Below, in pieces: positions 27,777 through 43,380 of a stretch of 64,000 bases of DNA (position 1 is the first letter of the stretch; each line of letters starts with the position of its first letter). This DNA comes from Candidatus Campbellbacteria bacterium. Lineage in GTDB: Bacteria; Patescibacteriota; Minisyncoccia; Phycocordibacterales; CSBR16-193. The stretch lies in the NCBI GenBank assembly GCA_007117035.1, contig SKHG01000036.1, positions 7,595-71,594 on the forward strand, written 5' to 3'. The notes under the pieces are model-generated. The model worked only from the letters and a program-made list of their open reading frames with translations, was not told the DNA's origin and searched no databases. Both the position numbers and the translations under genes were made by a program.

Positions 27777-28187
27777 TTAAAAAGTGAGTATGTTTTTTGG
27801 TAAAAGGTTTACACAATTTATTTCATTCAAATCAACCCATTTGAAGTCTATATGATCTTCTTGGGATATTATTTCAAGCCCGTCCTTTATTTCAGCCTCA
27901 AAAATTAAATTAATTTCATGATGCATTTTTTTATTTTCTTCATATGTATGTTCAAAATAATTTCTGAAGGAAATGTTAAATAGATCATCTTTTGATAGGG
28001 CTAGTTCTTCATTCATTTCTTTGTAAATTGTTTTTTCCACGGAGTCACCAAACTCAATGTGTCCTCCAGGAAGATAATAGTGTCCAGATTTTTTACTCAG
28101 ACATAATAAAATTTTTTTTTCTTTTTTTATAATAAGTCTGACTATGTTTTCAATATTGTTCATATGTATGAATACTATACTCTTCAT
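27777..28187 (-). CDS. NUDIX hydrolase
   Basis: Nudix box GGHIEFGDSVEKTIYKEMNEELAL (GX5EX7REUXEEXGU-like). Confidence 0.7.
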   Translation of the reverse strand: MKSIVFIHMNNIENIVRLIIKKEKKILLCLSKKSGHYYLPGGHIEFGDSVEKTIYKEMNEELALSKDDLFNISFRNYFEHTYEENKKMHHEINLIFEAEIKDGLEIISQEDHIDFKWVDLNEINCVNLLPKNILTF

Positions 28188-28233
28188 CTCTTATCTTGTA
28201 TCTAATTATGATTAGTTTGCATGTACATGGTTT

Positions 28234-29145: not shown

Positions 29146-29219
29146 GGTGACCCTACCGGGAATCGAACCCGGATTTCAAGCTTGAGAAGCTTACGTCCTA
29201 ACCGTTAGACGATAGGGCC
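29146..29219 (-). tRNA. tRNA-Glu (anticodon CTC)
   Basis: Reverse complement GGCCCTATCGTCTAACGGTTAGGACG-TAAGC-TTCTCAA-GCTTG-AAA-TCCGGGTTCGATTCCCGG-TAGGGTC-ACC folds as a cloverleaf: 7-bp acceptor stem with one G.U pair, Glu-like D-loop, T-loop GGTTCGATTCC, anticodon loop TTCTCAA. Confidence 0.85.
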
Positions 29220-35208: not shown

Positions 35209-36306
35209 ATGTCATTATCTATCGGAATTGTCGGACTACCGAATGTTGGTAAGTCAACACTTTTTAATGCGCTGACCGAAAAGGCAGTGCCAGCTGAAAA
35301 TTACCCATTTTGTACTATTGATCCTTCTGTGGGGGTCGTACCAGTTCCAGACAGACGCTTGGAAAGTTTAGCTGATTTTAGTAAATCTGAATCGGTAGTT
35401 CCTGTTGTGGTGGAGTTTGTTGATATTGCTGGTTTGGTCCGTGGTGCTTCTAAAGGTGAAGGCTTGGGTAACGAGTTTTTGCAGAATATTAGAGATGTAG
35501 ATGTGATTGCACATGTGGTACGAATCTTTGACGATGACTCTTTGATACATGTTGAGGGTTCGGTTTATCCTGCTCGTGATATTGAGACTATAAACACTGA
35601 GTTATTGCTATCAGATATTGATACTGTTCAGAGAAGAATAGCGAAAACAGAACGAGATGTAAAAAAAGGTGATAAAGATGCTGTAGCTGAAAGCGAGAGT
35701 TTAAAGAAGGCTATTAATCTTCTGTCAGAAGGTTTGAGACTTTACGGGTCAAATCTTACTGACGATGAACGGAAAAGATTGAAACCTTTAAATCTTTTAA
35801 CTCTAAAACCAATGTTGTATGTTTTAAATAAAAAAGCAGGAGCCATTAATCTCGATGAAGTACGAGATGGCCGAATTGAAGACCTTGAGATGCAACTGGA
35901 CCGCGAAAATGCGCCTCAAGTTAAGATAGACGCTGGAATAGGTTCAGAATTACAAGGAATTGATCCTGCTGAGAAAGAAAGTTTTCGTTTGGAGCTGGGT
36001 GCCCAAGACGACGGTGTCGATTCATTAATTAAAAAAGGCTACGAAATGTTGGATTTGATTACATATTTTACAACAGGTGAAAAGGAAACTCGTGGTTGGA
36101 CTATTAGACGGGGATCCTCAGCTCCAGAAGCAGGATCAGCTATACACTCTGATTTTCAGGAAAAATTCATTAAAGCTGAAGTGGTGGAGTGGCAGAAATT
36201 ATTAGAAGCAGGTTCTAAATCAGAAGCTAGAGATAAAGGTTTGATAAGAACTGAAGGTAAGGAATATATTGTTAAAGACGGTGATGTAATTGAGTTTAAG
36301 ATATAG
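35209..36306 (+). CDS. ychF: ribosome-binding ATPase YchF (Obg-family)
   Basis: GIVGLPNVGKSTLFNALT G1; NxxE G4 variant; C-terminal TGS domain. Confidence 0.85.
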   Translation: MSLSIGIVGLPNVGKSTLFNALTEKAVPAENYPFCTIDPSVGVVPVPDRRLESLADFSKSESVVPVVVEFVDIAGLVRGASKGEGLGNEFLQNIRDVDVIAHVVRIFDDDSLIHVEGSVYPARDIETINTELLLSDIDTVQRRIAKTERDVKKGDKDAVAESESLKKAINLLSEGLRLYGSNLTDDERKRLKPLNLLTLKPMLYVLNKKAGAINLDEVRDGRIEDLEMQLDRENAPQVKIDAGIGSELQGIDPAEKESFRLELGAQDDGVDSLIKKGYEMLDLITYFTTGEKETRGWTIRRGSSAPEAGSAIHSDFQEKFIKAEVVEWQKLLEAGSKSEARDKGLIRTEGKEYIVKDGDVIEFKI

Positions 36307-36387: not shown

Positions 36388-37458
36388 ATGAGAAAAGGAA
36401 TGCTACGTAACGTACTGTCGAATCTGAAAAGAATCGCAGTGCATTCGCGCATCCACCTCGATGAGGTGGTTGCAGTCTGGTTAATTTTCAAGTTTGGTGG
36501 AGATTTGATTAAAAATCTTCATGAACTTGAAATTATTGTCTGGCCGTCTGGTAATTCAACACCAGATGGCAAATCTGTAAGGAATCACATCCTTGCAGGT
36601 CTGCTACCGATAGGAGTCGGTGGAGGTGTAACAGACGAACACTCTCGCAACGGGAGTGGTCACTACGGTAAAAGTTCTGCAGAAATAATTGCAGAGCTTC
36701 TGGGGGTTCAGAATTTACCTGAACTTAAACAGATTCTGAAGATGGTTCACAGTGACGATGTCGAAGGATCCTCTAGTTTTGATCAGCTTGGACCATTGGT
36801 TCTTGCTTTGTCAAACGAGTGGGCAGATTCGCCAAAGTCTGTTGTAGACTACTTCAGCATTCTGTTAGATGCTCTATATGAAAGGCAGTGCCGATTTGTG
36901 GAGGGTAGAAAAGAGATTGCTCAGATTGAAAAGGAAGCACGGAAGGAAAGAGATGACTATCGTGTCCAATCAATCTGGATTCATGGTGAGAAGCTACGCC
37001 TTATAACAATTGAATCTGATAATGATCAAATTGTAAACTCGGCATGGAGCCGAGGATATGATGCGGTTATTAAAAGGTGTTCATCCGGACACACTCAGGT
37101 TTTGGCCAACAAAAGAGTAACGCTGGCAGAGTTAGATCGGGTTGCAACTCGATTAAGAATTAATGAGCTTCACCGGAGAGGAAAGGGTAACCAGATAAGA
37201 AAGACTAACCTTTCTTTGGACGGTCACCTTTCAGTAGCACCTGAGTGGTATTACCAGCGCGAGGCTGGAAGAATTATGAACGGATGCCATTCTGCTACCG
37301 GAGTCTCACCAACTCGCCTTTCACTGGAAGATATTCGCAAGATCGTTCTTGCGGCAATTAATCCTCCAGGAAGGAAGACTGTTCAAATAAAAAAGAGGGA
37401 AGAAGGGGGTTTATCCATAAATCGCGTCGCTGACGCAATGGAAAAAGTCTCTGTCTGA
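36388..37458 (+). CDS. hypothetical protein with MYG1/UPF0160-like (DHH-superfamily metal-dependent hydrolase) N-terminal motifs
   Basis: HSRIHLDEVVA resembles the FHxDEALA motif and GVGGGVTDEH the GGG..D..H motif of UPF0160; GC visibly higher than neighbours; family assignment tentative. Confidence 0.3.
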   Translation: MRKGMLRNVLSNLKRIAVHSRIHLDEVVAVWLIFKFGGDLIKNLHELEIIVWPSGNSTPDGKSVRNHILAGLLPIGVGGGVTDEHSRNGSGHYGKSSAEIIAELLGVQNLPELKQILKMVHSDDVEGSSSFDQLGPLVLALSNEWADSPKSVVDYFSILLDALYERQCRFVEGRKEIAQIEKEARKERDDYRVQSIWIHGEKLRLITIESDNDQIVNSAWSRGYDAVIKRCSSGHTQVLANKRVTLAELDRVATRLRINELHRRGKGNQIRKTNLSLDGHLSVAPEWYYQREAGRIMNGCHSATGVSPTRLSLEDIRKIVLAAINPPGRKTVQIKKREEGGLSINRVADAMEKVSV

Positions 37459-37603: not shown

Positions 37604-40600
37604 ATGCGTCAATACGATCATAAAAGAGTTGAGAAAAAATGGCAAAAAAGCTGGCAGAAAAGTAATCTATACAAGACTAAGGAAAGTAAAAAGAAAAAGT
37701 TTTACTGCTTAGATATGTTCCCTTATCCTTCAGGTGAAGGTCTGCACGTAGGTCACCCTAAAGGATATATTGCTACTGATATTATTTCTAGATACAAACG
37801 TATGACCGGTCATGATGTCTTACACCCAATGGGATGGGATGCATTCGGTCTACCAGCTGAAAATTATGCAATTAAGAACAAGATACATCCTGAAATGGCT
37901 GTAAAAAATAACGTAAAAAGATTTAAAAATCAGGTCTCAATTTTAGGTTTTGACTACGATTGGTCTCGCGAGATAAACACAACAGACCCAGAGTATTACA
38001 AATGGACTCAGTGGACATTTTTGCAGATGTACAAAAAAGGTTTAGCTTACGAATCAAATGAGCCTATTAATTGGTGTCCAAGTTGTAAAACTGGTTTAGC
38101 TAACGAGGATCTGGAGGATGGTAAATGTGAGAGGTGTAACTCTGAGATAGAACAACGTCCTATTCGTCAGTGGGTTCTTTCAATTACTAAGTATGCAGAC
38201 CGGTTGCTGAAAGACCTTAGTGGTCTTGATTGGCCAGAACATATTAAAGAACTACAAAGAAACTGGATTGGTCGATCTGAGGGATCTTTTATAAACTTTC
38301 AAGTAGGGGAAAAACTTCATTTTATCTTATTACATGGATACAAAGGTTCACCTCAAAAGAATTTTTTCCCGTGGTTAAAACTAGAGTTGGAAAAACAAGG
38401 TCACACTGTCGAAGTCCCTAAATTACCTAAAGCTGATAACCCCGATGTTTTAAAACAGGCTGAGTTTGTTTTGGATAATTGTAGATTAAACAAAGACACA
38501 GTTATTTTAGGACACAGTCATGGTGGATCAGTAGCTATGAAGGTTGTTGAGTCATTGAAAACTCCAATCAAGAGGCTTGTCCTGGCGGCTTCGTTTTTGG
38601 AGCCGAAAAGAAAGTATCAGACTGATTTTAATTGGCAGTATAATTTTGAAAAAATTAAAAAAAATTCTCAAAGAGTTACTGTTTTAAAAAGTCTTAAAGA
38701 CAGTGTTGTTCCTCCATCTGAGTCTGATAAAATTTCGGAAGTAACAAGTGGTGATTTGGTTATTATTAATCCTGAAGAAAACCATATTTGTGGTAAGGTG
38801 GAACCTAAAATTTTTAACGAACTTTCAACGGAGATTAAGATTTTTACAACACGTCCTGACACGATATTTGGTGCCACATACCTTGTTTTATCACCAGAAC
38901 ATTCTATGTTGAAAAGTTTGTGGGATAGAATAAAAAATAAAAAAGAAGTTCAGGTATATATAGACCAAGCTAGAAAAAAAACAGAGCTACAACGCACAAC
39001 CGAGGCAAAAGAAAAAACTGGTGTAGAATTAAAGGGAATCTTTGCTGTAAATCCAGCTACTAAGAAGCAAATACCTGTTTGGATTGCCGATTATGTTCTG
39101 ATTGGATATGGAACAGGAGCTATTATGGCTGTTCCAGCTCACGACGAACGTGATTTTGAGTTTGCTAATAAATTTAAATTACCTGTAAAAAAAGTGATTG
39201 AACCAAAGTTTACTGCTCTCTCAGGTGATGATGCAGTCCGTAAGGGTTTAGACTTTATTAAAAGAGAAGCTGTGTGTGCTGTTGTAAGAGATCCTAAAAC
39301 TGATAAATATTTATGTATCAGCTGGAAGGGAATTAATATGAATGGTTTGGTAACTGGTGGACTTGATGATGGAGAAGATTTGGTGGATGCTGGCCGTCGT
39401 GAAGTCTTTGAGGAAACTGGATATAAAAACTTAAAATTAATTAATGATCCTGATATTGCAATCCATAGTCTCTTTTATCATCGAGTTAAAAAAGTTAACA
39501 GGTGGGCCAGATTTCGTTATGTATTTTTTGAATTAGAAGATTACAGTAGAGAAGATGTGGACGATGTTGAAGCTTCATTACATGAAGTTGTTTGGAAGAG
39601 TAAGGAAGAAATGTCTAACTTTTTTTCGGTTGTTGAGGGTAGGTTTCTATTGAAGATTCTGGAGAATTCAGAAAATATTTATTTAAACGACGGTGTTTTA
39701 ATAAATTCTGGAGAGTTTACAAACCTAGACTCAGAAACAGCTCGAAAGATAATAGTTGAGAAGATTAAGGGGGAATTTACTGTTACTTATAGGCTGAAAG
39801 ATTGGGTGTTTTCTAGACAGAGATATTGGGGTGAACCAATACCATTGGTCCATTGTGAAAAATGTGGCGTTGTTCCTGTACCAGAGAATGATCTACCTGT
39901 TAAGTTGCCAAAGGTTAAAGACTATGAGCCTACCGGTACAGGTGAGTCACCTCTAGCTAATATCTCTTCTTGGGTAAATACAAACTGTCCAAAATGTAAC
40001 GGACAGGCACGTCGTGAGACTAATACTATGCCACAGTGGGCTGGTTCGTCTTGGTATTATTTGCGATACATTGATCCTGAAAACAAAAAAAGTTTAGTGT
40101 CATTAAAAAAAGAAAATCGGTGGATGCCTGTAGATGTTTATGTTGGTGGAGTTGAACACGCTACTCGTCATTTAATATACGCTAGATTTTGGCATAAGTT
40201 TTTGTATGATATTAAATCTGTTAGTACACTTGAACCGTTCCAGAAACTTAAGAGTCAAGGAATGATAAGTGGTCCAGATGGTCGAAAGATGAGTAAACGT
40301 TTTGGTAATGTAATTAATCCAGACACGGTGGTCTCTAATTACGGGGCTGATTCATTGCGTCTTTATGAAATGTTTATGGGACCTTTTGAGCAAGGTGGTT
40401 CCTGGAGTGATAAAAACATTATGGGTGTTAGAAGGTTCTTGGAAAGAGTGTGGAAGATATCTGATAAGATTAGTAAAAGTGCAGTTACTGAGGAGGCTGA
40501 CGAAGTTTTACTAAACAAAACGATTAAACAGGTAACCAAATCCATAGAAGATTTTTCCTTCAATACAGTGATATCTGATTTAATGATTTTGTCCAACAGA

Positions 40601-40957
40601 TTCTGGGACAAAGAAAGTATTAAGTTAAAGGAGTATGAGTCCTTATTGATACTTTTGGCTCCATTCGCACCACATATTACAGAGGAGCTTTGGCAGATGA
40701 TTGGTAAGAAGAAAAGCATTCATGTTGCTAAATGGCCAAGCTTCAACCCAGATAAATTGAAGGATAAAAATGTTAGTATTGTGATTCAAGTTAACGGAAA
40801 AGTTCGCGCAAAAATAGTAGTCGAACAGGGTTCTCAAAAAGGAGAAATACTTGAAAAGGTTAAAAATTTACCAGAGATATTAAAATGGATTCCTACTGAA
40901 AATTTAATTAAAAAGGAAATTTTTATCCCTGATCGATTAATTAATTTTGTAATTTAG
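37604..40957 (+). CDS. leuS: leucyl-tRNA synthetase (bacterial type), 1117 aa, with two inserted hydrolase domains: alpha/beta serine hydrolase at ~38315-38840 and Nudix at ~39200-39690
   Basis: HIGH region (PYPSGEGLHVGH), zinc knuckle CPSCKT...CERC, CP1 editing TTRPDT, AHDERDFEF, VLINSGEF, RLKDWVFSRQRYWGEPIP and KMSKR all in LeuRS order; extra domains described in findings. Confidence 0.9.
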   Translation: MRQYDHKRVEKKWQKSWQKSNLYKTKESKKKKFYCLDMFPYPSGEGLHVGHPKGYIATDIISRYKRMTGHDVLHPMGWDAFGLPAENYAIKNKIHPEMAVKNNVKRFKNQVSILGFDYDWSREINTTDPEYYKWTQWTFLQMYKKGLAYESNEPINWCPSCKTGLANEDLEDGKCERCNSEIEQRPIRQWVLSITKYADRLLKDLSGLDWPEHIKELQRNWIGRSEGSFINFQVGEKLHFILLHGYKGSPQKNFFPWLKLELEKQGHTVEVPKLPKADNPDVLKQAEFVLDNCRLNKDTVILGHSHGGSVAMKVVESLKTPIKRLVLAASFLEPKRKYQTDFNWQYNFEKIKKNSQRVTVLKSLKDSVVPPSESDKISEVTSGDLVIINPEENHICGKVEPKIFNELSTEIKIFTTRPDTIFGATYLVLSPEHSMLKSLWDRIKNKKEVQVYIDQARKKTELQRTTEAKEKTGVELKGIFAVNPATKKQIPVWIADYVLIGYGTGAIMAVPAHDERDFEFANKFKLPVKKVIEPKFTALSGDDAVRKGLDFIKREAVCAVVRDPKTDKYLCISWKGINMNGLVTGGLDDGEDLVDAGRREVFEETGYKNLKLINDPDIAIHSLFYHRVKKVNRWARFRYVFFELEDYSREDVDDVEASLHEVVWKSKEEMSNFFSVVEGRFLLKILENSENIYLNDGVLINSGEFTNLDSETARKIIVEKIKGEFTVTYRLKDWVFSRQRYWGEPIPLVHCEKCGVVPVPENDLPVKLPKVKDYEPTGTGESPLANISSWVNTNCPKCNGQARRETNTMPQWAGSSWYYLRYIDPENKKSLVSLKKENRWMPVDVYVGGVEHATRHLIYARFWHKFLYDIKSVSTLEPFQKLKSQGMISGPDGRKMSKRFGNVINPDTVVSNYGADSLRLYEMFMGPFEQGGSWSDKNIMGVRRFLERVWKISDKISKSAVTEEADEVLLNKTIKQVTKSIEDFSFNTVISDLMILSNRFWDKESIKLKEYESLLILLAPFAPHITEELWQMIGKKKSIHVAKWPSFNPDKLKDKNVSIVIQVNGKVRAKIVVEQGSQKGEILEKVKNLPEILKWIPTENLIKKEIFIPDRLINFVI

Positions 40958-41038: not shown

Positions 41039-42121
41039 ATGCCAACAAAAAATAAAACAAAAAGTCAGGTAAAGGTGAGTGGTCAGCAGATGGCTATTAT
41101 TGCCTTTAAACCAAAAAAAGTTACCAAAGATTTGCTTTCTGTTCTTTCAGACAAAGCAAGGGATATTATAATTGCACGTTACGGTTTAGGTACTACTGTT
41201 AAAAAAGAGACTCTAGAATTAATTGGTAAAAAATACGGAATTACAAGAGAGAGGGTTCGTCAAATCGAAAACCACTCCCTAGAGTATATTCGTCGTTCTG
41301 AAGTGACTCTTAAAAATAGTAATATATTTGATGAGATTAAAGATGTTATTAAGAAACTTGGAGGAATGGTATCTGAAAAGGATCTTTTGAATAGTATCTC
41401 TAATAAATCTGATATTCAAAACCATATTCATTTTCTCTTAGTTATTGGTGATTACTTTATAAAAAGACGGGAAGACCAAGATTTTCACCATAGATGGCAT
41501 ATAGATGAAGATCTTTCTGGCCAGATTCATATTTCACTACAAAATTTATACCAAAGTCTGTCTGATGATGACTTAATCTCAGAACCTGATATGATTAAGT
41601 TGTTTTTAGAGGATCTAAAAGGTGTCTCAGAAGAATATCGTCAAGATGAAATTGTTCGTAGATGGCTTTCTTTGTCAAAAAAACTTGGAAAGAATCCTTT
41701 GGGTGAATGGGGAAAATCACAGTCGCCAAATGTTAAGGCAAAAGGTATTCGTGACTATGCTTTCTTGATAATGAGAAAACACGGAACACCAATTCATTTT
41801 AGAGATATTGCTAAATCAATCGAAAAAGTTTTTAACAAAAAAGCTCACGTTGCTACTACACACAATGAGTTGATTAAGGACCCAAGGTTTATTTTGGTGG
41901 GCCGAGGTCTTTATGCATTAAATGAATGGGGTTTTTCTGGTGGAGTGGTTAAGGATGTTATCCGTGATGTTTTATTAGAACATGGTCCACTTACAAAAAA
42001 AGAGATTATTGAAATTGTTTTGAAGAAAAGATTTGTAAAAGAAAACACTGTATTAGTTAACCTCCAAAATCCTGCTTATTTCCGTAAGGACAAGCAAGGG
42101 AAATATTCTGTGGTACAATAG
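41039..42121 (+). CDS. DNA-binding protein with N-terminal sigma-70 region-4-like HTH and C-terminal HARE-HTH-like winged helix
   Basis: ITRERVRQIE (sigma r4 recognition-helix signature); C-terminal GRGLYALNEWGF resembles the HARE-HTH of RNA polymerase delta/restriction-system proteins. Confidence 0.5.
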   Translation: MPTKNKTKSQVKVSGQQMAIIAFKPKKVTKDLLSVLSDKARDIIIARYGLGTTVKKETLELIGKKYGITRERVRQIENHSLEYIRRSEVTLKNSNIFDEIKDVIKKLGGMVSEKDLLNSISNKSDIQNHIHFLLVIGDYFIKRREDQDFHHRWHIDEDLSGQIHISLQNLYQSLSDDDLISEPDMIKLFLEDLKGVSEEYRQDEIVRRWLSLSKKLGKNPLGEWGKSQSPNVKAKGIRDYAFLIMRKHGTPIHFRDIAKSIEKVFNKKAHVATTHNELIKDPRFILVGRGLYALNEWGFSGGVVKDVIRDVLLEHGPLTKKEIIEIVLKKRFVKENTVLVNLQNPAYFRKDKQGKYSVVQ

Positions 42122-42141: not shown

Positions 42142-43380
42142 ATGATCGAAAGTTTTTTAATTGAAAAATTTGGCGAAGGAGCTATTTTAGCTTATCAAGT
42201 GTTTTATATTTTATTGGCTATTTTAGTTCCTTCAATGTTACTTTTTTTTGCGTGGCGTTTTCGTCTAGCTTATTTAAAAAATGTTTTTTTTCGTAAAGAA
42301 GGTTGGACGCTTTTAGAGATACATATCCCAGAAGAAATAAAGAAGACTCCTCAGGCTATGGAAATGGTTTTGGAGTCTATGAATGTTGGTAGTGGAGAAA
42401 GTAACTTTATTATGCGTCTGTGGCACGGTATGACACGTCCTTGGTTTTCTCTAGAAATAGTTTCGTTTGAAGGACGAATAAGTTTTTTTATATGGACTCG
42501 AAAGCGTTGGAAAGCAGGTGTTGTTGCGGCAATCTATTCACAGTACCCCACAGTTGAGATTAACGAAGTTGATGACTACACCAAACAACTACCGACTGAT
42601 TTAGAAAAATATATCGTCTGGGGTTCAGAGATGGATCTTAAAAAGCCAGATCCTTATCCAATAAAGACATACAAGTATTATGAAATGGATAAAGATCAAG
42701 ATGAAGACCTGCAACCAAAGACAGACCCGTTGAGTTCTTTTATAGAAGCGCTTGGAAGCATTGGTCCGGGTGAGTATTTCTGTTTTCAGATTATAATAAG
42801 GAAACATAAAAAAGAAAAAAAGGTACAAGGTAGTTTGTTTAAAAAACAGAGCTGGCGTGAGGAAGGAAAAGAGATTGTTAAAAAATTAAAGACTGGTGAT
42901 CAGGTTAAGTCTGTTGGTGAGGATAATCAACCGATTATTATGCTTTCTAATATGGAACGAAGTTTTATTGAATCAATGGAAAGAAACCTCAGTAAACACG
43001 CTTTTGATTGTGGAATGAGAATTTTGTACATTACTGAAAAAAATTCCTTTGATGTGACTAGGCTTTCTACCATTCCTGGAGCATTAGGGCAGTTTGGAGA
43101 TGAAATACATAATTCTTTTGATAAAGCTCGAGGGCATGATCCTATGAACTGGTTTTGGCAGGATGTTGATAGAATACGAGGAGCAAGAATATCTAAAAGA
43201 ATATTTGATGCCTATAGATTTCGTGCATATTTTCATATGCCATACATATCTCCGCACTTTACGTTAAGCGCTGAAGAAGTGGCGTCTGTATTTCATTTTC
43301 CTGGAAAAGTGGTCACAACTCCAACTTTTGAGAGAATACGATCTAAAAAAGCTGAGGCTCCTGTAAACATTCCTCAGTAG
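42142..43380 (+). CDS. hypothetical membrane-anchored protein (412 aa)
   Basis: GGAGG RBS 8 nt upstream; N-terminal TM; likely co-transcribed with 41039..42121 (20-nt gap). Confidence 0.5.
   Translation: MIESFLIEKFGEGAILAYQVFYILLAILVPSMLLFFAWRFRLAYLKNVFFRKEGWTLLEIHIPEEIKKTPQAMEMVLESMNVGSGESNFIMRLWHGMTRPWFSLEIVSFEGRISFFIWTRKRWKAGVVAAIYSQYPTVEINEVDDYTKQLPTDLEKYIVWGSEMDLKKPDPYPIKTYKYYEMDKDQDEDLQPKTDPLSSFIEALGSIGPGEYFCFQIIIRKHKKEKKVQGSLFKKQSWREEGKEIVKKLKTGDQVKSVGEDNQPIIMLSNMERSFIESMERNLSKHAFDCGMRILYITEKNSFDVTRLSTIPGALGQFGDEIHNSFDKARGHDPMNWFWQDVDRIRGARISKRIFDAYRFRAYFHMPYISPHFTLSAEEVASVFHFPGKVVTTPTFERIRSKKAEAPVNIPQ

Follow-up and report, generated by a model that had tools for sequence, protein, structure and literature searches.

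A YdeN/RBBP9-type serine hydrolase nested in the leucyl-tRNA synthetase of a Candidatus Campbellbacteria bacterium belongs to a family partnered with leuS

What is a serine hydrolase doing inside a leucyl-tRNA synthetase? This question is raised by the leuS gene in a stretch of DNA from Candidatus Campbellbacteria bacterium (GenBank assembly GCA_007117035.1, contig SKHG01000036.1, positions 7,595 to 71,594; the whole stretch of 64,000 nucleotides is called the window, and positions refer to it). The encoded leucyl-tRNA synthetase (LeuRS) contains a YdeN/RBBP9-type alpha/beta serine hydrolase at the edge of its CP1 editing domain. A sequence-only reading of the locus had treated this as a single curiosity, whereas our analysis identifies it as one member of a large family in bacteria of the candidate phyla radiation (CPR, Patescibacteria) and in DPANN archaea, with several nested hydrolases. 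Across both groups the hydrolase is a partner of LeuRS, either as a separate gene beside leuS or nested at one of two sites in the enzyme. The gene, the module and its predicted catalytic elements lie in the window as follows.

37604..40957, + strand: leuS, a bacterial-type leucyl-tRNA synthetase of 1117 aa with two nested enzyme domains (open reading frame, TIGR00396, Pfam, 1h3n alignment)
38309..38830, + strand: YdeN/RBBP9-type alpha/beta serine hydrolase module, aa 236-409, at LeuRS site A (alignment gap, PF06821, AlphaFold2, Foldseek)
38333..38338, + strand: HG motif His244-Gly245 after strand beta1 (of 77 aligned modules, 76 have the H and all have the G)
38510..38527, + strand: nucleophile elbow GHSHGG (aa 303-308), with Ser305 at 38516-38518 (aligned with RBBP9 Ser75 and the YdeN serine)
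38699..38701, + strand: Asp366, predicted catalytic acid (aligned with RBBP9 Asp138)
38783..38785, + strand: His394, predicted catalytic base (invariant in 77/77 modules, aligned with RBBP9 His165)

The open reading frame 37604..40957 was assigned to leuS by the NCBIfam equivalog TIGR00396 (leuS_bact), which it matched with 1002 bits against a cut-off of 548. Pfam recognised tRNA-synt_1, tRNA-synt_1_2 and Anticodon_1 (the last at aa 970-1078), and the CP1 editing domain was matched by PF13603 with 195 bits. When the protein was aligned by phmmer with the LeuRS of Thermus thermophilus (Tth, structure 1h3n), aa 1-235 paired with Tth 1-237, aa 410-534 with Tth 242-364, aa 688-889 with Tth 372-578 and aa 895-1117 with Tth 637-876. 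Relative to 1h3n, the window LeuRS therefore has two insertions (aa 236-409 and aa 535-687) and one deletion. The hydrolase falls into the gap between Tth residues 237 and 242, in agreement with the N-terminal edge of CP1 where the earlier reading had placed it. Neither insert was present in any solved LeuRS when the solved structures were searched with phmmer. The insert had been delimited as 38315-38840; it does lie there, with ends that are off by 2-3 residues from the computed 38309-38830. The hydrolase block had also been offered as the reason for the unusual length of the protein, and this explains one part of it: a further insert of about 153 aa with a Nudix domain had been missed, and the leucine-specific domain (Tth 578-637) is absent, the alignment skipping from aa 889 to aa 895 (window about 40268-40288). 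All of the peptide strings quoted earlier were found at their places.

The family assignment of the insert was confirmed by profile and by structure, the checks that had been proposed for it. Pfam Ser_hydrolase (PF06821) matched aa 241-395 above its cut-off (27.7 bits against 22, E 3e-6, profile positions 2-154 of 172). With the insert alone as the query, phmmer found YdeN of B. subtilis (1uxo, E 3.4e-8) and human RBBP9 (E 8e-5), and the profile of the hydrolase family scored the window module with 233 bits. An AlphaFold2 model of the insert, built from 58 homologous rows, reached a predicted local distance difference test (pLDDT) score of 95.6 and a predicted template modelling (pTM) score of 0.92, and displayed the alternation of strands and helices that is typical of a minimal alpha/beta hydrolase. 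The first matches of this model in Foldseek were YdeN (1uxo) and RBBP9 (2qs9, 7oex and 9fcr) with E values from 1.5e-14 to 1e-11, TM scores of 0.88-0.89 and root mean square deviations of 2.1-2.2 A; the remaining esterases ranked far lower. In the model of the full-length LeuRS (pLDDT 88.1, pTM 0.77), the host strand 224-234 is followed by a link of 4 residues, the module, a link of 2 residues and the host strand 410-415. The first strand of the module spans residues 239-243 and its last helix 401-407. Flanked by the two host strands, the module takes the place of the turn in the first beta-hairpin of CP1, and it ends 6 residues ahead of the editing peptide TTRPDT.

The catalytic residues were examined in a profile-aided alignment, in which RBBP9 Ser75, Asp138 and His165 corresponded to Ser305, Asp366 and His394 of the window protein. 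The triad thus appears intact, as had been read from the sequence. In the elbow, Ser305 was conserved in 77/77 modules, His304 in 76/77 and Gly307 in 76/77. The acid column held Asp in 49 modules and Glu in 25, so that an acid was present in 74/77. The pair His244-Gly245 is presumably the oxyanion-hole element, as general knowledge of alpha/beta hydrolases would lead one to expect. The mean pairwise identity across 98 site-A modules was 41%, and at this divergence an invariant Ser305 and His394 together with an Asp or Glu at the acid position point to purifying selection on catalysis, not to a mere structural remnant. The clade of the module also has signatures of its own, FFPWLK..ELE and an EP six residues past the catalytic His. 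By its modelled structure and predicted triad, the insert is a genuine, independently folding and catalytically equipped serine hydrolase of the YdeN/RBBP9 type.

An artefact, either an assembly chimera or an insertion similar to an intein or mobile element, was considered and has a negligible probability. The identical 1117-aa protein was found in NCBI, ENA and Logan assemblies and was seen on 2 contigs, including an ENA contig of 114 kb. A chimera was excluded by this agreement of separate sources and by the recurrence of the architecture, at 30-50% module identity, across hundreds of proteins and no fewer than 158 species genomes. The reading frame runs unbroken across the insert, whose G+C content equals that of its flanks. 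No Hint-type Pfam match was obtained in the window LeuRS, and the junctions, which read ...QVG|EKLHF... and ...ELST|EIKIF..., contain no splice-junction residues; with the flank-like G+C content this led us to reject an intein or mobile element. What speaks for an insertion event of this kind is an imperfect direct repeat of 19 nt (15/19) that lies almost exactly at the two borders of the insert (38284-38302 and 38810-38828), with a spacing of 526 nt. The repeat is probably due to chance, because the DNA is A+T-rich, the insertion is ancient and the encoded peptides are not conserved in relatives.

How widespread the insertion is was determined in several searches. Among the best 120 LeuRS homologues, 75 carried the hydrolase and 93 carried one to three Nudix domains; a survey of orthologues for the same insertion, which had been suggested, hence found it to be common. 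All named members of these 120 belong to the Patescibacteria/CPR (Parcubacteria/Paceibacterota, Woesebacteria and Moraniibacteria). When 1.84 billion representatives were searched exhaustively by HMMER with the insert as the query, 1417 matches had E<=1e-3 and 304 of them E<=1e-10, whereas a word-index search with the insert alone recovered only 2 free-standing proteins and missed all nested copies. The species genomes of GTDB were covered by a pattern-seeded scan with a 5-sequence alignment of LeuRS-type modules, so that this census is biased towards such modules. A relative of the module was encoded by at least 158 of these genomes, from CPR bacteria and DPANN archaea. Of the best 80 loci, 66 were LeuRS with the module at site A and 5 were LeuRS with the module at a second position, site B, that follows roughly residue 750 of the window protein. 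Seven were class I aminoacyl-tRNA synthetases of Saccharibacteria, two of them IleRS (L087 and L089) and the other 5 with the same BLAST pattern; one was a ValRS and one a free-standing copy. One of the Saccharibacteria loci is labelled Candidatus Nanosynbacter, a lineage with members that are grown in co-culture. A DPANN label was present on 17 of the 80 loci:

DPANN-labelled loci: L014-L016, L018, L019, L021-L023, L025, L029, L032, L035, L045, L046, L050, L052, L064

In sixteen of these the module is nested in a LeuRS of bacterial type, and in the remaining one (L064) a free-standing module lies near a bacterial-type leuS without insert. The bacterial-type composite LeuRS in DPANN suggests either transfer of the composite gene between domains or mis-binning. 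Exchange of aminoacyl-tRNA synthetase genes between CPR and DPANN has a precedent (PMC5370408). Within the 64-kb window a search with the family profile found no second copy of the module. A split LeuRS was considered for P0123, a protein of 897 aa that starts at the module, and was rejected: its locus (L005, 3167-6694) is one unbroken open reading frame of 1175 aa, and P0123 is a truncated gene call.

The partnership with LeuRS was not restricted to nested copies. The closest free-standing homologues have 175-190 aa and are 40-48% identical to the module, and they were linked to leuS in 8 of 9 informative contigs; two further contigs were too short to be counted. The hydrolase gene was found directly upstream of leuS in L001, L008, L009/L010 and L093, directly downstream in L096, and one to three genes away in L011, L064 and L012. 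The arrangements were as follows.

P0001: 25 nt upstream of a Nudix-bearing leuS
P0125: 37 nt upstream of an insert-free leuS of 801 aa
P0131: 7 nt upstream of an insert-free leuS of 809 aa
P0193: 3 nt upstream of an insert-free leuS
P0144: 3 nt downstream of a leuS of 806 aa, with Ham1-like and IMPase genes upstream of leuS and Sua5/YrdC after the hydrolase
P0128: leuS two genes downstream
L064 copy: leuS one gene downstream
P0129 (Pacearchaeota archaeon): first gene of an operon of hydrolase, hydrolase, YbaK-like tRNA_edit, Ham1-like and archaeal-type LeuRS

This linkage far exceeds random placement. The lineages behind the count are not fully independent, as L001 and L011 share synteny. Since it was seen with bacterial and with archaeal LeuRS and in both gene orders, the linkage holds for both LeuRS types and in both domains of life. 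The operon of P0129 spans 4001-8549 of L012 (GCA_020049755.1), and its partner families are those that are nested in bacterial LeuRS elsewhere. In L096, a RelB/ParE toxin-antitoxin pair (1045-1568) lies between the Ham1-like and IMPase genes and the leuS-hydrolase pair.

We then asked which other proteins carry the module. Members of the same clade were found in ValRS (P0170, P0219 and L083), AlaRS (P0180) and IleRS (L087 and L089), and also in TsaD (P0173), EngA (P0241), SecA (P0147), UvrA (P0182) and a GatA-like amidase (P0235). A further host, P0231, is a formyltransferase in which the N-terminal formyltransferase domain alone was detected; its size minus the module fits Met-tRNA formyltransferase, not PurN. 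The triad was intact or near-intact in every other host class examined. More distant members of the family are N-terminal fusions to ANT(2''), HD, IMPase, S51 peptidase and methyltransferase. The UvrA host P0182 has Trp at conserved Gly positions (HSLWW, HGYAWW), which suggests that UGA encodes Gly in its lineage and that the wrong code was used for the translation.

The hydrolase is also not the only guest of LeuRS. The second insert of the window protein is a Nudix domain inside CP1 that starts 125 residues downstream of the hydrolase module.

39206..39664, + strand: Nudix hydrolase domain, aa 535-687, inside CP1 (PF00293, alignment gap between Tth 364 and 372, family profile)
39356..39424, + strand: Nudix box GGLDDGEDLVDAGRREVFEETGY (aa 585-607), an exact fit to GX5EX7REUXEEXGU

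It was matched by PF00293 with 38.1 bits (cut-off 21.1) and by the Nudix family profile with 189 bits. Among the homologues, 80 of 87 CP1-internal Nudix modules retained the strict Nudix box, and some CPR relatives have one or two additional Nudix domains upstream. In P0094 a Ham1-like domain sits at site A instead of the hydrolase, in P0108 a DUF559 endonuclease adjoins the hydrolase, P0037 has HAD_2 in its zinc-finger region, and the Saccharibacteria IleRS L087 contains a low-molecular-weight (LMW) phosphatase. Some of the guest-bearing LeuRS and IleRS of CPR (P0094, P0108, P0037, P0004, L087 and L089) reach about 1500 aa. A free-standing Nudix protein of 137 aa is encoded elsewhere in the window (27780-28190, - strand; PF00293, 46.9 bits) and is weakly related to the nested Nudix modules.

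The functional sites of the host enzyme were compared in 76 LeuRS homologues, which included sequences with and without the hydrolase module.

37745..37756, + strand: HIGH signature HVGH (aa 48-51) of the synthetic site (from the sequence; H48, G50 and H51 invariant in the 76 homologues)
38846..38863, + strand: CP1 threonine-rich peptide TTRPDT (aa 415-420; aligned with Tth T247, T248 and T252)
39140..39154, + strand: CP1 HDERD (aa 513-517), including the universally conserved Asp517 (aligned with Tth H343-D347)
40286..40300, + strand: KMSKS signature KMSKR (aa 895-899; from the sequence; K895, M896 and K898 invariant in the 76 homologues)

In the CP1 peptides, T415, T416, D419 and T420 as well as H513, D514, R516 and D517 were invariant. 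As the HIGH, KMSKS and CP1 editing residues are all intact, the hydrolase supplements CP1 and does not substitute for it.

What the module contributes was judged from these distributions. The reading that we favour, tentatively, is that of an auxiliary hydrolase of aminoacyl esters (or thioesters or amides) that would serve LeuRS in an added clearance or proofreading step; we consider this quite possible, if short of probable. An aminoacyl group with a free amine would be attacked at its carbonyl by Ser305, an acyl-enzyme would be formed and the amino acid released. The products cleared in this way would be those that LeuRS should neither keep nor release, with mischarged tRNA-Leu that has passed CP1, released non-cognate aminoacyl-adenylate and homocysteine thiolactone as candidate substrates. 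The module would act as a trans-editing factor that has become tethered, and the tether would provide proximity and 1:1 expression, not a fixed active-site geometry. The Nudix domain downstream would probably process a nucleotide by-product. An aminoacyl-ester hydrolase of this kind is supported by the leuS-linked free-standing homologues, by the L012 operon with its YbaK-like factor, by the independent nesting at site B and by the nature of the other synthetase hosts, as IleRS, ValRS and AlaRS are editing enzymes. The known chemistry of RBBP9 also supports it. As an aminopeptidase, RBBP9 removes N-terminal residues that are hydrophobic and holds the alpha-amine with Glu108, Ser76 and Tyr99, and adducts of its Ser75 with single Leu, Ile, Phe, Tyr and Trp residues have been described (PMC8866121).

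Several observations weigh against this assignment. CP1 is fully conserved, so that there is no obvious need for a second deacylase. The insertion sites vary, with A and B used in LeuRS and different ones in ValRS, IleRS and AlaRS, and hence no fixed geometry to the editing pocket is needed. UvrA, SecA, EngA and TsaD, where the module is nested with an intact triad, handle no aminoacyl esters, and the Nudix, HAD, Ham1, LMW phosphatase and DUF559 guests in LeuRS relatives fit a general tolerance for passengers. P0188, a free-standing homologue, has no leuS in its neighbourhood. In addition, the alpha-amine anchors of RBBP9 are not conserved in the module clade in the profile-aided alignment: the loop around Glu108 is variable and has a gap in the window protein, Ser76 corresponds there to His, and to Leu in 68/77 modules, and the position of Tyr99 is taken by Phe, Leu or Ala. 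We therefore rejected the idea of assigning the aminopeptidase specificity of RBBP9 directly to the module.

The same observations have to be weighed for the other explanations. The main rival is a passenger enzyme: the module may be an independent housekeeping or house-cleaning esterase that is nested in permissive surface loops of large essential proteins and has no link to aminoacylation. In the tiny genomes of CPR and DPANN such nesting recurs, also with Nudix, Ham1, HAD and LMW phosphatase domains, and the gain would be expression and retention. The hosts outside aminoacyl-tRNA metabolism, the diversity of guest enzymes at several LeuRS and IleRS sites, the fusion of distant family members to unrelated enzymes, the intact CP1 and the variable insertion geometry all agree with it. 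We nevertheless regard it as rather unlikely, because a passenger would not be expected beside or near leuS in 8 of 9 contexts when it is unfused, with insert-free, Nudix-bearing and archaeal-type LeuRS alike. Adjacency and nesting are distinct genetic events, and both have reached the same partner. LeuRS also accounted for 71 of the 80 GTDB loci and IleRS or ValRS for 8, in a scan that was biased by its LeuRS-type seeds. A role on the supply side, in which the module trims hydrophobic N-terminal residues from scavenged peptides and frees Leu (or Ile, Val, Ala) for the synthetase, would be useful to symbionts that cannot make amino acids, and the source names of the homologues are those of CPR and DPANN lineages. 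RBBP9 is a hydrophobic aminopeptidase that traps Leu and Ile adducts (PMC8866121), and all synthetase hosts found (LeuRS, IleRS, ValRS and AlaRS) serve aliphatic amino acids. This role is unlikely, however, as the alpha-amine anchors are not conserved, a free amino acid would diffuse off with little channelling from the tether, the YbaK-like deacylase in the L012 operon favours proofreading over supply, and non-synthetase hosts exist. The absence of MetRS and PheRS from the host lists examined was also counted against it.

Aminoacyl-tRNA synthetases are targets of aminoacyl-adenylate mimics, and the module could confer immunity on the target itself. It would cut the aminoacyl-nucleotide bond of Trojan-horse inhibitors of LeuRS (leucyl-adenylate mimics) in the manner of MccF, leaving the nucleotide moiety to be taken apart by the nested Nudix, Ham1 or HAD domains. 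The guests on the drug target, an aminoacyl hydrolase beside nucleotide pyrophosphatases and phosphatases, would suit such a substrate, and RBBP9-type chemistry works on free-amine aminoacyl amides. No defence-type or antibiotic gene context was found around the window leuS, the module is also present in UvrA, SecA and EngA, and its broad and ancient distribution is more like that of core physiology; immunity is accordingly very unlikely. Finally, the fold could have been retained only as an appendage of CP1 that serves structure, tRNA binding or regulation and has no catalytic function. Idiosyncratic non-catalytic insertions are common in aminoacyl-tRNA synthetases, and the very short linkers suggest a rigid mounting on CP1. 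The pattern of conservation is that of an active enzyme, with invariant Ser305 and His394, near-invariant HG and GxSxG motifs and an Asp or Glu in 74/77 modules, and this makes a non-catalytic appendage even less likely than immunity.

Should the module hydrolyse aminoacyl esters as we favour, it may represent a new class of proofreading or clearance factor of aminoacyl-tRNA synthetases, the first with a covalent serine acyl-enzyme. This class would be confined to CPR and DPANN, would work in trans as a protein from leuS operons and in cis as a domain of LeuRS, IleRS, ValRS and AlaRS, and would have Nudix, Ham1 and HAD domains as a built-in unit for by-product disposal. We hold this wider proposal to be doubtful, though not far-fetched. 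A synthetase with an accessory domain is a known kind of protein; the class would be new if it is true that the module edits via a serine nucleophile.

The module was compared with known systems. YdeN (1UXO) and RBBP9 (2QS9, 7OEX) have the same minimal alpha/beta fold, about 175-190 aa in size, with triad, GxSxG elbow and HG motif at corresponding positions. They are free-standing and 18-20% identical to the window domain, which is nested in another enzyme. The editing modules CP1, ProRS INS/YbaK/ProXp and the AlaRS editing domain/AlaX follow the same mixed logic of separate gene or fusion, and YbaK/INS and AlaX modules occur in both forms. The predicted chemistry, hydrolysis of aminoacyl esters, is alike, whereas the fold is unrelated, the window module predicts a covalent serine nucleophile and the hydrolase is also found in proteins unrelated to tRNA. 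We know of no covalent serine-nucleophile catalysis in the described editing domains of these synthetases. The module lies outside the known editing families (CP1, INS/YbaK/ProX, AlaX, DTD and ThrRS N2), as no tRNA_edit, tRNA_SAD or DTD Pfam match was obtained in aa 236-409. NCBIfam NF040702 (isoleucine--tRNA ligase, N-acetyltransferase domain-containing), compared by its model name, likewise joins a class Ia synthetase to an unrelated enzyme domain; the guests of the window LeuRS differ in being a serine hydrolase and a Nudix domain, and in being nested within CP1 instead of appended. MccF, which acts on microcin C, and BPHL/valacyclovirase are serine hydrolases that free a free-amine aminoacyl group from a nucleotide or nucleoside. 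They belong to other families and have no synthetase fusion, and their likeness to the proposed chemistry of the module is speculation. Inteins are similarly autonomous folds that lie in-frame in essential proteins of several hosts, but the hydrolase stays in the architecture of the mature protein and has its own triad and no Hint or splice-junction residues.

Few enzymes have been studied as thoroughly as the aminoacyl-tRNA synthetases and their editing domains, and the catalogue of editing folds has been regarded as essentially complete. An intact serine hydrolase that is partnered with LeuRS by fusion or in an operon may add a new chemistry to translational quality control. Alternatively, it may reveal a strategy of symbionts with reduced genomes, in which house-cleaning enzymes (esterase, Nudix, Ham1, HAD and phosphatase) are mounted on essential translation proteins. 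Hundreds of species from two domains of life share the partnership, and the module is small and has an unambiguous predicted nucleophile, which makes it directly testable. The earlier reading knew of no synthetase with an embedded serine hydrolase, and this stands, as neither a paper nor a solved structure was found: a full-text search, with subscription journals mostly outside it, gave no published account of a serine hydrolase or Nudix domain nested in a synthetase. The module-bearing sequences themselves are already public, with precomputed Pfam matches. There is also a practical side, as automatic annotation already labels some of these synthetases by their guest; NCBI names the LeuRS relatives P0039, P0072, P0080 and P0090 'alpha/beta fold hydrolase'.

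The surroundings of leuS in the window were also inspected. Directly upstream lies an open reading frame of 356 aa (36388-37458, + strand) that had no Pfam match, and it is preceded by a YchF gene (35209-36306). The gene directly downstream of leuS (41039-42121) encodes Sigma70 region 4 and a HARE-HTH domain. It is followed, two genes downstream of leuS, by an open reading frame of 412 aa (42142-43380, + strand), again without a Pfam match. The sole RNA gene detected in the 64 kb was a tRNA-Glu (CTC) at 29146-29219 on the - strand.

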